Shown here piece after piece: positions 4,108 through 64,000 of a stretch of 64,000 bases of DNA. Numbering within the stretch: position 1 is the first letter of the stretch; each line of letters starts with the position of its first letter. Location of the stretch: contig OZ024752.1 in assembly GCA_964016885.1 (NCBI GenBank), positions 33,666,001 through 33,730,000 of the forward strand, written 5' to 3'. Position numbers and translations under genes: made by a program. Source of the DNA: Eledone cirrhosa. Taxonomy: Eukaryota. The notes under the pieces were generated by a model. That model did not search any database, had not been told where the DNA came from, and saw nothing but the letters and a program-made list of their open reading frames with translations.

Positions 4108-5120
4108 TACGATATTAACAAATGGAAACTATATTAATAAAACCATATTTATTTCATTATACATATTTCAAGGACACCAAGTTAAATTATGGTGTGCTTT
4201 CATTAGATAAAATATAATATAGATCAGTTTTATAAATAAATATTGACATACCCTTAAAAAATGCAACCATTACTGTTGGAAGCTCCCGGATAGTGGAGTT
4301 GTAGCTTTAATTATATTATTAGTATTGGATATTTTTATTTTTAAAAGAAGCCGTTGGGTTACGGAGAAAGAGAAAGATAGAGAAGGAGAGAGAGAGAAAG
4401 ACCGGAACAACAGAGAGAGAAAGAGAGAGAGAGAGAGAGGAGATAGAGAAAAGGAGAGAGAACGAAACCTCTAAGTCATATCTTGTTGAGTTAACTTAAC
4501 AATTGAGATGAAATGAATAAATAAAATTAGAAATGTTAAACATCTAATCATATTTAAACAATGGTTAAATTTCTCATATTATATATGTATATTCCATTCA
4601 TGATTATTAACATTTCTAATTTTATTTATTCATTCATCTCAATTGTTAAGTTAACTCAACAAGATATGACATAGAGGTTTCGTTCTCTCTCCTTTTCTCT
4701 GTCTCCTCTCTCTCTCTATCTTTCTCTCTCTGTTGTTCCGGTCTTTCTCTCTCTCTCCTTCTCTATCTTTCTCTTTCTCCGTAACTGAACGGCTTATTTT
4801 AAAAATAAAAATATCCAATACTAATAATATAATTAAAGCTACAACTCCACAATCCGGGAGCTTCCAACAGTAATGGTTGCATTTTTTAAGGGTATGTCAA
4901 TATTTATTTATAAAACTGATCTATATTATATTTTATCTGATGAAAGCACACCATAATTTAGCTTGGTGTCCTTGAAATATGTATAATGAAATAAATATGG
5001 TTTTATAAATATAGTTTCCATTTGTTAATATCGTATTTTTACTCCAAATATTTGTTGAGTGCTTTATATCAGTTATAAAAATATTTGCTTCTTGTATCCC
5101 AACAATTTAAATAGAACTTT
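4108..5120. repeat. ~930-bp inverted repeat (arms ~4108-4550 and ~4600-5035) with hammerhead motif and unique 3' tail
   Basis: Arms are near-exact reverse complements; CTGATGA at 4937, GAAA at 4974; flanked by (TA)n. Confidence 0.88.
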
Positions 5121-5282
5121 TACATATATGTGTATATATATATATACATAATGTATATATACATAATGTATATATACATAATGTATATATATATACATTA
5201 TGTGTATATATATATACATTATGTATATATATATATTCATTATGTATATATATATACACATAAATGTATATATATATATATA

Positions 5283-5833
5283 ATAAAGATAGACAGTAGC
5301 CACGGAATAGGCAGACCTAGAAAAACCTGGGACGAGCTGATAAACTCCGACCTCACACACTTACACCTCTCCAAGACAATGTCACTGGACCGAGACCTTT
5401 GGCGGTACTCAGTAACAGAGAAGACCCGCCTTACCTAAATACATAGTAAAACCTACTACAGCCAGTAGGCATCACTAACAAAATACCCCCCCCCGTCCCA
5501 CCCCCCCCCCACCCCACCCCGTTCTATGTAAAGTTGTGTTGGTGCCACACCATCCAGGCCGAAACAAATGAGATCATGTAGGTGTCACGACAAAAAAACA
5601 CACAGTCCACGCTGTAATGTGGCCGTGTAGGCAACACGGTAAAAACCTCCCAGACCCACACTGTAAATGTGGTTGGTGTTAGGAAGGGCATCCAGCCGTA
5701 GAAGACCTGCCAGACAGTCCTATGCGAGCAAGACAATCACTCTTGCCTCAAGTGGGACTACCCCCGTCCAAACCCATGCAAGCGTGGAACACGGACGTTA
5801 AACGTTGATGATGATGATGATGATGATGATGAT
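5283..5833 (+). mobile_element. RTE LINE 3' end (family A)
   Basis: [18 protein letters not shown]..., 3'UTR and (GAT)n tail. Confidence 0.9.
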
Positions 5834-6886
5834 AATGTATATATATATAAATTTATTATTATTACTATATATAATGTATATATATATATATTATGTATTT
5901 TTTAATTTTTTTAATTTTAATTGAGTTCTTAACACGTTGGATTGATAATGTTTTCGAAAAAACTGATTAACCCGTGTGTATATTATTTTTTTTCCTCCTT
6001 TCGTGGATCGTAGTTGTCTCCCCTTCCCGCTTAGTGACGCTATAATACTTCCTCACTAAAAAACTGCTGGAATTTCAAATTTGCCGGTCATTCGATGCGG
6101 GAAGGAGCAACTTAACAGACACGATTTTTAACTGCAGTAAGAATTTTTTTCTTATATCAAAGTTTAATGGGCTTCCACTGATGATTTATAAGCACCCACC
6201 TAAATATATTCTTACATGAATATATATTAGGCTTCTACATAAACTGGAAATATTCTCCGAATTTGTGGAAAACTTATAATGAAACAATTGTTTGGAAAGA
6301 GAGATATATTTTAACTTTAATTATATCTTATAAAATAATACAACTGGCTTTTCCACATAATACATATTGTTAGCACCCCAAACACTTAAATTGGGTTTAT
6401 ATTAAAATATAACCTAATGTTTGTTGAGTGAGATGGTTACCAGTCAGAGATTAGCTTTAAACTATCTCTGTTATTGTATTAATTATATAATGTATATATA
6501 TATATAATGTATATATATATAATTGTTTCTACTTTTTGGCACAAGGCCAGCAATTACCCAGTGCATTACTGGTACTTTATTTTAGCGACCCCTTCAGGAT
6601 GAAAGGCAAAGTTAATCTTGGCGGGATTTGAACTCATAATGGCAAGGGCCGTAACTCTATGCTAAAATGCATGGCGTCCAACCCTCTACCGATACTGCTA
6701 ATCCACCATATATATAATTGTTTTTACTTTTGGCACAAGGCCAGCAATTACCCAGTACATTACTGGTACTTTATTTTATCGACCCCGGAAGGATGAAAGG
6801 CAAAGTTAACCTCGGCGGGATTTGAACTCAGATCATACAGGGAGGTAACTCTATGCTTCAATATAATGTATATATATATTGTTAAT

Positions 6887-7935
6887 TATAGTCCTCCAAG
6901 CCAGAACAGAGGAGTTTAAGACTGGCTGTCCATAGGAACTTCTCTATGCTGATGATCTGGTTCTTATAGCAGAATCAGTAGAGGAGCTAGAGAATAAATT
7001 CTGGCTATGGAAACAGCAGTTGGAATCAAGAGGACTGATAGTGAACCTAGCTAAGACAAAAGTGTTGAGTAGAAAAGAGGACAAAACTCTGATTCCGTCA
7101 GGGAAATGACCATGTTCGATATATAGAAAAGGAACTGGCATAAATTCTATAAAATGCACACAATGCAGATCCTGGATACACAAGAGATGTAGTGGGATAG
7201 CAGGCAAACTAACAGGTAGGGAGAAATATGTATGCAGTAGATGTACAGGGAAATTAGACAGTAGAAGTCGCATTGATAGACACATTCTTCAAATGCAGGC
7301 GGGTGCTATAGAAGTGGTGGATAGCTTCCGGTACCTAGGAGATCAGATTAGCATGGGAGGGGGGTGTTCGGAGGCCATAGTATCTAGAATAAGGATGGGT
7401 TGGAAGGAGTTTAGGGAGCTGCTTCCTCTGCTGACGAAGAAGGGTTTCTTCCTGCGTACAAAAGGCCGGTTATATGATGCCTGTGTGAGACGCACGGTGC
7501 TGCATGGTAGTGAGACATGGGTAGCAACTGGGGAGGATATGTGACGGCTGGAGAGAAATGAGGCAAGCATGCTCCGTTGGATGTGCAATGTCAATGCGCG
7601 TGAACGACCAAGCATAGATGAGTTGAGAGAGAAACTGTGTCTGAGAGGGATAAGTTGTGGTGTGCAGGAGAGAAGACTGAGATGGTATGGACATGTGATG
7701 CACATGGAGGATGACTGCTGGGTAAAGAAGTGCCAAGTAATCCCAGTAGAAGGAAAATGCAGTAGAGGAAGACCACGAAAAACATGGACGGAGGTGGTGA
7801 GAGCAGACCTCAGATCGCTGAAGTTCACAGAGGAGATGACGAAGGACCATGACAAGTGGACAGATGCTGTACTGAATAAGACCCGTCCCACCCTTGCAAG
7901 CAGGGAAAAGCGGATGTAAAATGATGATGATGATA
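6887..7935 (+). mobile_element. Degraded RTE LINE (family C)
   Basis: YADD region, FRYLG and RRLRWYGHV, with in-frame stops; 3' end acccgtcccacccttgcaagcagggaaaagcgg followed by (ATG)n. Confidence 0.88.
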
Positions 7936-62190: not shown

Positions 62191-62274
62191 AAGAATGAGA
62201 AATAAGATAGATTGCAGGGACGGGTGGGGTGGAATTGGAAAAAAATGTCTTTAGATAGAAATAACAGGTCCATT

Positions 62275-62449
62275 CAACACAATATAATTATTCCATTACC
62301 AAAGGTTTCAGGAAACTAGACGATCCTTACAGAAACGTCGGGCCCGTTCATCAGATGAAACTATTTCAACTGATGAATGGGCCTTACGTTTCTGTTACGA
62401 TCGTCTGGTTTCCTGAAACCTTTGGTAATGGAATAATTATATTGTGTTG
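62275..62449. repeat. Palindrome with hammerhead core
   Basis: CTGATGA 62370, GAAACC-ttt-GGTA 62415-62427; tail related to 58250-58340. Confidence 0.78.
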
Positions 62450-63249
62450 TTTATTATGTAATTAAATAGCTCTGTACTATACATAGAGCACTCTTCTTTC
62501 CTTTACCTTTTCTATGGAAATACTTAACACACATATATCATCATCATCATCATCATCTTCGTTTAACGTCCGTTTTCCACGCTAGCATGGGTTAGACGGG
62601 AGTTGTCCCACACGGGTGACCGTGTACACATATATATTATTAGTACACACACACACGTGTGTGTGTGTGTACTAATAATATATATATTAAACAGTCCTAT
62701 ACGAGCGAGACATGGTCACCTGACCCAACTTGCCTCAAATGGGACAAACCCGTCTAACCCATGCTAGATGATAATGATGATATATATATATATATATATA
62801 TATATATATATATATATACATACATATATATATATATATATATATATATATGTATTTCATTGGACATCGCTCAGCCTCCGGAATCCTCTCCCCCCACCTC
62901 TCTGACCCCTCCCCTTCCACACACGCACACCCACACCGACCTACACCCCACCCCACACCTTTTCCTGAACATGCAACCCCGTTCTTCCCCCAACTCTTAC
63001 TTTCACACACACACATACACACACACACACGTACACCACCTTCAGCCCTCCCCGCCTCTCTCTCCCCACTCCACCCGCCATCACCCCTACACGCTACACA
63101 CCCTTCCACCACCTGTTTTACTTCATGTTTATTTTTATTATGCTTTTATATTTAATTTCATTTGTACCGTTTCCTCTCACCCCCTTTTTTCTATATGTCT
63201 CTCCACCACTCCCCCACACACCCTTGGAACTCTCTTCCCACACACTTTT

Positions 63250-63285
63250 CACCTGAAGAAGGGCTTATCCCCGAAACGTCTTTCC
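63250..63285 (+). ncRNA. Putative minimal hammerhead motif
   Basis: CTGAAGA-agggcttatcccc-GAAAC-GTC followed by AATAAA at ~63319; stem I weak. Confidence 0.45.
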
Positions 63286-64000
63286 CCACCACTACCCCAC
63301 TCTCAAGAGCGTGAAACTAATAAACCTTTGTTCGTACTGCCTCTCTGTTTTGTTCCCGTTCAATTTTTTACTATATATATATGTATATATATATGGAATT
63401 GAGACGTGCTGAATAAAACATATTCTGACTGATCTATTGAGGGCAAATACCATGAAATGCTCAATAAATAGTTAACAGTAAGTCTGGATATTTGGAGTTG
63501 TGATATTAATTCACACTATAAATATGGAACACAGTAAAACAACACAGCACACTCATTACAAACAAACAGATGTGGAAAAAAACTATTTAGCACTGGGACA
63601 GGTCAAATCCTGTACTAGGGCTGAACAGAGCTTGTTGTGGGACAGATCTTAATAATAATAATGAAATTATTGTGTACAGTGCTCAGGTGCACTACAACTC
63701 ATCAAAGGTGCATGTAGAGTACATAGAATAATGTACAAATGTCAGGAAAATGAACAGTGTATGAGTCATGATATAATAATAATAACAATAATGAAATATT
63801 GTGTACAGTGCCCAGGTGCACCACAACTCCACTGCCAACATGGAAGCTAGAACCAAAATAAATATGGATGATTATTATTACATTTCTAGTAGAAAATAAA
63901 CGCAACATGTCGATTGTACAGGGAAATCAGATGGGTTTAAAATGGCATGAATTAGATTGAGAGGAAGGGGTCACATGCTCTGTGGAGTTGAGTAACATAC

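Follow-up and report, generated by a model that had tools for sequence, protein, structure and literature searches.

The window analysed here is a stretch of 64,000 nucleotides from the genome of Eledone cirrhosa (assembly GCA_964016885.1, contig OZ024752.1, positions 33,666,001 to 33,730,000), for which an earlier reading of the letters alone (the original prediction) had proposed a system of hammerhead ribozymes (HHRs) carried by several unrelated families of coding-less, trans-mobilised Penelope-like elements (PLEs) or retrozymes. The window contains about 19 PLE 3' ends that lie in (TA)n and lack an open reading frame (ORF), ten of them head-to-head palindromes with a tail on one side only. 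Most of them sort into 11 families, including Hydra-type and Neptune-like PLEs. Very probably, the loci are the ORF-less 3' ends (pseudo-long terminal repeats, or pLTRs, with minimal type-I HHRs) of many endonuclease-bearing (EN+) PLE families that have their coding copies at other places in the genome; the ends probably arose in cis, as products of truncated insertion, and not as separately copied non-autonomous elements. The case for PLE ends is that eight of the 11 families share their ends with reverse transcriptase (RT) or GIY-YIG endonuclease ORFs, and that the loci have fixed 3' ends, (TA)n flanks, locus-specific palindrome junctions and clustered 5' ends.

The scattered hammerhead motifs are real, being enriched over shuffled sequence and covarying in stem II. 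The window was scanned with a type-I descriptor (core, stem II of at least 3 bp, GAAA, stem III of at least 2 bp, UH, and stem I of at least 4 bp), with CUGAnGA as the strict core and CnGAnGA or UUGAnAA as relaxed cores; 100 local dinucleotide shuffles and the reversed sequence served as controls. The strict core gave 8 matches against a shuffle mean of 0.04 (maximum 1) and the relaxed cores 11 against 0.16 (maximum 2), with no relaxed-core match in the reversed sequence. Seven of the 14 sites listed originally, as at least 12 loci, pass the descriptor: 4937+, 14850+ (then given as 14846; U3-A8 core UUGAAAA), 15293+ (then 15289; core CAGAAGA), 21835-, 58009+, 58470+ and 62186-. An eighth, 62370+ (mirror 62354-), is probably intact by eye, with a bulged stem II. 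The count of cores did not hold for the remaining six, which are decayed or rearranged when judged against their own families: stem I is gone at 9412, GAAA has become AAAA at 18602, stem III and the closure of stem II are altered at 18918, stem I has a mismatch at 56413 (the mirror copy, 56165-, is intact), 59819 is a fold-back junction with stem III deleted, and at 63253 a stem I of just 2 bp in the family is broken. Four further sites, previously overlooked, pass as well (14766-, 56165-, 56627- and 58379-).

Long fold-back palindromes around the HHRs were also found as described, with arms 95% identical at 4107-4459/4684-5036 and 98% identical at 56061-56288/56290-56517. An Rfam search of the window (E<=1) produced no match to a hammerhead model among the 150 of 165 matches listed, which were miRNA-like hairpins and other chance matches. 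As had been stated, the window has no PLE RT or GIY-YIG ORF: tblastn found no PLE ORF homology, and the only match in a second search was a short interspersed element (SINE) tail fused to one query.

Table 1. Probable PLE ends in the window. F1 to F11 are the families; + and - after a position give the strand of an HHR; "new" marks ends that the original prediction did not contain.
Feature	Positions	Strand	Remarks
F1 (Hydra-clade PLE 3' end), head-to-head palindrome	4107..5123		tail right, ~5037-5123; core 4937+ intact, left-arm core mutated; parent ORF in L197
F2 short palindrome	9247..9475		tail left; decayed HHR 9412+; no parent ORF found
F3 (Neptune-like PLE end) palindrome	14663..15023		U3-A8 HHRs 14766- and 14850+; tail right
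F4 (EN+ PLE end) palindrome	15073..15466		HHR 15293+, CAGAAGA core; tail right
F5 end, decayed	15582..15809	-	new
F5 (Neptune-like) end, decayed	18469..18737	+	core 18602 without GAAA
F6 end	18770..19067	-	HHR 18918-, long stem II, stem III mutated; no parent ORF found
U3-A8 HHR-family palindrome	21144..21337		tail right; fold-back inside stem II, only GAAA half kept; new
F7 end	21712..21990	-	HHR 21835-; begins at the family's preferred 5' site; no parent ORF found
PLE-A stub (young Hydra element)	45329..45461		94% over 67 nt; begins one base past C3; inverted tail fragment; new
F8 (Hydra) palindrome	55968..56517		arms 98%; intact HHR 56165-, stem-I-mutated mirror 56413+; tail left
F1 palindrome	56530..56883		intact HHR 56627-; right arm begins inside stem II; tail right
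F1 5'-truncated end with tail	57774..58203	+	intact HHR 58009+
F9 (Hydra) palindrome	58200..58553		HHRs 58379- and 58470+; tail left
F10 rearranged stub, older PLE-A subfamily	59729..59845		HHR not intact
PLE-A-family stub with tail	61138..61291	-	75%; begins inside HHR; new
F5 (Neptune-like) end	62067..62276	-	intact minimal HHR 62186-; palindromic ACGU stem III
F9-related palindrome	62270..62538		HHRs 62354- and 62370+, bulged stem II; tail right; 75% to F9
F11 (Neptune-like) 5'-truncated end	62870..63372	+	HHR 63253+, 2-bp stem I broken

The same (TA)n tracts take adjacent inserts of different PLE families (14663-15466, 55968-56883, 57774-58553 and 62067-62538). The palindrome at 21144-21337 belongs to a very abundant PLE end whose copies almost without exception have their fold-back point within the long stem II of a U3-A8 hammerhead; of 84 contexts only 6 retain a core-like heptamer upstream, which is the U3-A8 core in five.

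How common are such ends in the genome? An even sample of 59 evenly spaced 10-kb stretches (60 were requested; 590 kb in all, the smallest chromosomes and scaffolds omitted) held 38 motifs in 17 clusters (1.5 motifs in shuffles) after five of 43 raw matches that fell in one satellite (L264) had been dropped. (This AT-rich satellite, seen near 7703 in L264 and at L395:3132-3449, mimics the U3-A8 descriptor and is a source of false positives for genome-wide counts; L-numbers denote loci fetched from the same genome.) Extrapolated to the 3.0-Gb assembly, the sample gives about 1.9x10^5 motifs (bootstrap 1.1-2.7x10^5), or about 62 per Mb. Motif density in the window is about 2.7 times the mean of the sample (resampling P ~0.014). 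The fetched loci overall contain 338 distinct motifs in 40 clusters, 24 of which have at least two members. Since PLE coding sequence lies within 2 kb upstream of only 6 of the 31 sample motifs with enough flank, ORF-less ends are the norm. The proposed insertion into TA microsatellites agrees with the sample, in which (TA)n or (AC)n follows within 260 nt downstream of 39 of the 43 raw matches, compared with 25% of random positions. AATAAA, said to follow often, is within 60 nt of only 10 of the 43, which is nevertheless above the 6.6% of random positions.

Parent elements were sought by walking upstream from copies of the window families. Seven of the 11 families are contiguous, in longer genomic copies, with PLE coding sequence (GIY-YIG endonuclease in all seven and RT in six), and an eighth, F10, is linked by homology as an old subfamily of PLE-A, a young and intact Hydra-clade PLE. 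Relatives with coding sequence that share ends with the window families were thus found for seven families directly and for one through PLE-A, and the placing of these minimal type-I HHRs, in many families and often as inverted pairs, at PLE termini is upheld. F1 (4937, 56627, 58009), F8 (56165/56413) and F9 (58379/58470) run into Hydra-type ORFs 1.0-1.5 kb upstream: F1 into an endonuclease ORF in L075, L082 and L101, and in L197 an RT ORF is flanked by two HHRs 4,095 bp apart; F8 has the ORF end about 1.0-1.2 kb upstream in L106, L109, L115 and L131, and both RT and endonuclease in L199; F9 has parents in L193, L194 and L196. F3, F5 and F11 run into Neptune-like ORFs. For F5 (62186, 18602) these are in L393 and L394, with the motifs ADKGG, CX4CxxC and GIY-YIG; for F3 (14766/14850), the alignment of L242, L256 and L202 runs from the HHR end into GIY-YIG and RT; and for F11 (63253), L204 and L203 share 94% identity over 1,574 bp, reaching the end of the endonuclease ORF. 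The F3 copies are incidental loci, a DNA search of the animal's own genome with F3 having returned nothing, not even F3 itself. F4 (15293) joins an EN+ ORF in L192, and a sister family does so in L197.

Some apparent links were set aside. The ORFs near F2 in L260, L201, L202 and L275 belong to adjacent, separate insertions, and the Hydra ORFs that precede F7 in L324 and F1 in L086 were not counted, contiguity being seen in no second copy. Broken PLE RT/endonuclease sequence of a further family lies about 2-3 kb to the left of the window (L069:6789-7847, minus strand), as well as in L068 and several random stretches. At L397:555-2900 and L398:466-1505, a unit of about 690 bp in direct and inverted repeats ends in CUGAUGA without a following GAAA, and is possibly another pLTR.

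PLE-A was traced from a GIY-YIG-like peptide beside one fetched locus. In L064 it has an intact ORF of 709 aa (4304-6430, plus strand) in a pLTR-ORF-pLTR arrangement, with ends at 4106 and 7365, that is, two HHR-bearing ends 3,259 bp apart; such partial tandems were seen in L064 and L066 for PLE-A and in L197 for F1. There are at least 150 matches to PLE-A, all scored ones 98-100% identical over the endonuclease, among 59,274 first-look candidates. The HHR has a CAGAAGA core and a long stem III. The protein motifs (RWR, SDKT, a CxCX5C linker, CDLC and CKH) agree, with RWR for RWK, with the list that Craig et al. (2021, PMC8557442) give for the Hydra clade, namely RWK, DKT, a CxCX5C linker, CxxC and CxH without CCHH; the linker also occurs in the F1 and F9 parents. 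PLE-A is a candidate for biochemical work: an intact young element would provide a substrate for work on a clade that has so far been described from sequence.

The ends have a regular anatomy. Each family has two fixed 3' ends, a short end and a tail end, at +69/+156 from C3 in PLE-A, +109/+159 in F3 and +84/+205 in F9. In PLE-A the tail is formed by the beginning of the following unit, on the way to the ORF; in a lizard element the PLE tail lies between two internal priming sites (PMC11167929). The 5' ends of a family either scatter widely or gather at a site particular to that family, upstream of the ribozyme: 19 of 36 PLE-A ends fall at -11 to +10 from C3, 9 of 17 F3 ends at -43 to -31, and 19 of 31 F7 ends at -163 to -141. 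The clusters of F9 (-45) and partly of F8 (-122) coincide with query ends and may reflect search bias, although an untargeted F8 copy, L291, also ends at -122. All three clusters of PLE-A, F3 and F7 stand at a (T/C)CAGA pentamer which, judged by eye, may be an initiator-like signal. Cleavage by the ribozyme was considered as the setter of 5' ends and ruled out, since the ends are not clustered at the cut site: across five families only 6 of 165 lie within 4 nt of it (PLE-A 4/48, from two palindromic loci; F9 0/16; F1 1/35; F3 0/17; F2 1/49).

The palindromes are likely made afresh at each insertion and not copied as units, because their junctions differ between loci: 58 palindromic loci have 56 junction classes, and of the two shared classes one is a local duplicate while the other consists of similar ends at two loci. 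The anatomy suggests a run-off mechanism, which is somewhat favoured here. The element RNA would start at a fixed site in the upstream pLTR, and the enzyme would nick both strands of AT-rich DNA. Reverse transcription would then be primed internally at the two tail sites, for which the lizard PLE provides an in vitro precedent (PMC11167929). Copying of the upstream pLTR would run off the RNA start and yield stubs of 70-300 nt, and two stub cDNAs, one from each DNA end, would be joined head-to-head to form a one-tailed palindrome; copies of the downstream pLTR would be long and variably 5'-truncated. HHRs do not appear to set the ends of the element. Where the two-cDNA joining is concerned (the identity of the elements is not at issue), palindromes might instead form once the element is inserted, or through self-priming on an antisense template. 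Head-to-head PLE palindromes have been read in this way (PMC3846280), and some junctions show small overlaps or fillers, but the arms of a palindrome both stop at fixed 3' sites of the family, usually the short end for one and the tail end for the other, one arm reaches the fixed 5' site, and the protein of the lizard PLE cuts and extends each of the two strands (PMC11167929). Self-priming or later formation is therefore possible but doubtful. On the run-off model, the sharp 5' and 3' ends of the stubs are predictions of RNA start and priming sites, and bear on the formation of PLE inverted repeats and on the role of the ribozyme.

Do the motifs behave as hammerheads? In the even sample, stem I reaches at least 4 bp in 29 of 49 cores although the search did not demand it; shuffled sequence gave 1 of 50, and 2,000 arm swaps averaged 3.8 (maximum 12). 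Copies of the F1 type were gathered by their flank outside the core, giving 67 distinct sequences, 51 with a core, of which 17 representatives were aligned. In this alignment 93.6% of cells are paired, four stem II pairs have changed on both sides, and the covariation score was reached by none of 500 shuffles, so that stem II covaries among genomic copies of the F1 superfamily, as anticipated. The weak predicted folding of the monomers (given below) agrees with the published opinion that a minimal HHR of a PLE requires dimerisation or a protein (PMC4209133; PMC11167929), and the HHRs of the window are predicted to cleave weakly, as dimers or with the help of protein.

Several observations weigh against reading the loci as hammerhead-bearing ends of coding PLEs. 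The number of pairs with two-sided changes (5) was matched or exceeded in 149 of 500 shuffles and is not above chance, and the covariation counts, being drawn from related sequences of the F1 superfamily only, are not probabilities. The full three-way fold was predicted as a monomer for just one of 11 sequences (58470), with z from -2.7 to +1.4. The link of F4 to an ORF comes from one of 26 copies plus the sister family. For F6 and F7, none of 28 loci each is contiguous with an ORF, the longest shared upstream sequence being about 0.55 kb and about 1 kb, respectively, and F2, with some 0.3-0.4 kb of shared upstream sequence, was likewise found without an ORF. Apart from PLE-A, the parent ORFs are broken in the copies examined, while PLE-A itself gave no Pfam or PDB match, and its probable Hydra-clade membership rests on the motifs described in PMC8557442. 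Finally, fixed 5' ends are equally expected of short non-autonomous elements.

This last point bears on the proposal that coding-less derivatives are mobilised in trans. It mostly did not stand: the ends of eight of the 11 families are on coding PLEs and palindrome junctions are not shared; the part that survives concerns the families of 9412, 18918 and 21835, for which no parent ORF was found. F7 (21712-21990) is the best candidate, followed by F2 and F6, for true non-autonomous, SINE-like derivatives, in which a short pLTR with its own promoter is re-inserted in trans. Besides the missing ORFs, the 5' cluster of F7 (19 of 31 ends) combined with two fixed 3' ends would suit such an element, and pLTRs are reported to suffice for integration in trans (PMC3846280). 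Yet longer F7 copies (L308, L318, L311) reach about 1 kb upstream, within the 1.0-1.5 kb of 3' untranslated region (UTR) seen in ORF-linked families, the ORF-linked PLE-A, F3 and F8 have the same kind of fixed 5' ends, and F5, too, seemed ORF-less in its first 29 loci until walked upstream. Such derivatives are accordingly judged quite unlikely. A related idea, that at least one family, above all F7 (about 280 nt without and 420 nt with the tail), is a promoter-bearing hammerhead parasite of PLEs that re-transposes from its own stubs, is also improbable. If it were true, an F7-like parasite would exist in a genome with about 10^5 hammerheads in at least 24 families, and the stub ends would map RNA starts and the two priming sites.

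The retrozyme part of the original prediction fared worst. Animal non-LTR retrozymes would spread as tandem HHR repeats through circular RNAs and rolling-circle copying. Type-I HHRs with a palindromic stem III are common to the window motifs and to retrozymes, and a 2026 preprint ties retrozymes to PLE pLTRs (10.64898/2026.07.22.740005). Retrozymes are, however, defined by head-to-tail units that each carry an HHR (PMC7229834), whereas the HHRs of the window are single or head-to-head and Tandem Repeats Finder lists no HHR-bearing array there; none of the F7 tails inspected runs back into the 5' start of the element, and the cut site shows no accumulation of 5' ends. For the window, the retrozyme reading is largely excluded, and its probability is very slight.

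The window is rich in repeats and also carries other elements. ORFs of long interspersed elements, which we take to be RTE-like, are found with RT domains (RVT_1) at 2023-3948, 24111-26579, 47556-48962 and 49421-51352, in several related copies with a PHD-like Cys-rich insert past the RT core. A protein-kinase exon lies at 42955-43275 on the minus strand (Pfam Pkinase, E 1.4e-7), which makes it probable that some of the window is intron. There is a Tc1/mariner-like DDE transposase fragment at 60332-60922, also on the minus strand (DDE_3, E 0.002), and a 150-bp palindrome at 28936-29087 consists of two inverted copies of a common SINE-like repeat, without a hammerhead core.

The literature already contains PLE ends with minimal HHRs, paired motifs on opposite strands, U3-A8 cores, tails and insertion into (TA)n; what is described here is a known system with new families, notable mainly for its abundance. 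Cervera and de la Pena (2014) describe many families of minimal HHRs per genome, mostly single and tied to truncated PLEs, with opposite-strand pairs and U3-A8 cores. The octopod families resemble these in the number of type-I families, mostly single motifs, in their truncated PLEs, U3-A8 core, palindromic stem III and 2-bp helix I, and in dual motifs 100-700 bp apart on opposite strands. The counts differ: about 62 per Mb here, beside roughly 2,000 plus 1,300 HHRs in Schistosoma, 9,000 in Xenopus and 4,000 in the coelacanth, although the descriptors differ and the figures are not directly comparable. For a coral, PMC7229834 gives over 6,000 HHRs in 16 families, and for the axolotl up to 120,000. 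Among cephalopods, a Penelope expansion is described in coleoids (PMC8967140), and 31 recently active Penelope-like families in an octopus, in passages of PMC13282606 in which the word "ribozyme" does not occur; no genome-wide HHR census for a cephalopod was found in the literature searched, and the supplements of that paper and of the 2026 preprint may list some of the families. With its motifs estimated at 1.1-2.7x10^5 and belonging to no fewer than 24 multi-copy families, the genome amounts to a large natural library of ribozyme variants (U3-A8 and U4A/C/G cores, 2-bp stem I, long stem II).

With retrozymes (PMC7229834; 10.64898/2026.07.22.740005) the ends share type-I HHRs, the lack of coding capacity and kinship to PLEs; unlike them, they are not tandem, their HHRs are not of the canonical loop-loop kind, and they are contiguous with PLE ORFs. 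They resemble PLEs with inverted pLTRs (PMC3846280, PMC8557442, PMC11167929) in having a head-to-head 5'-truncated copy and a tail at one end that is the start of the next unit, but have longer tails (about 50-200 nt; 30-40 bp in the published descriptions), and most of the inserts contain no ORF. The parents of F3, F5 and F11 resemble EN+ PLEs of the Neptune/Nematis type in their DKG (F3, F5), CX4CxxC (F5, F11), GIY-YIG and CCHH-like residues. Finally, Craig et al. (2021) describe the Hydra clade, (TA)n targeting, inverted copies and tails, and list an octopus Hydra family with an HHR, Hydra-1_Obim (PMC8557442). The parents PLE-A, F1, F8 and F9 share with this clade DKT or its equivalent, CxCX5C, and CxxC with CxH around E/N, as well as HHRs near the 3' end and (TA)n targets. 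PLE-A departs from it in its RWR, its unit of about 3.26 kb (generally less than 3 kb in the clade) and its 1.1-kb 3' UTR, and its HHR differs by eye from the one listed for Hydra-1_Obim. Several distinct Hydra families coexist in this genome, one of them young and intact.

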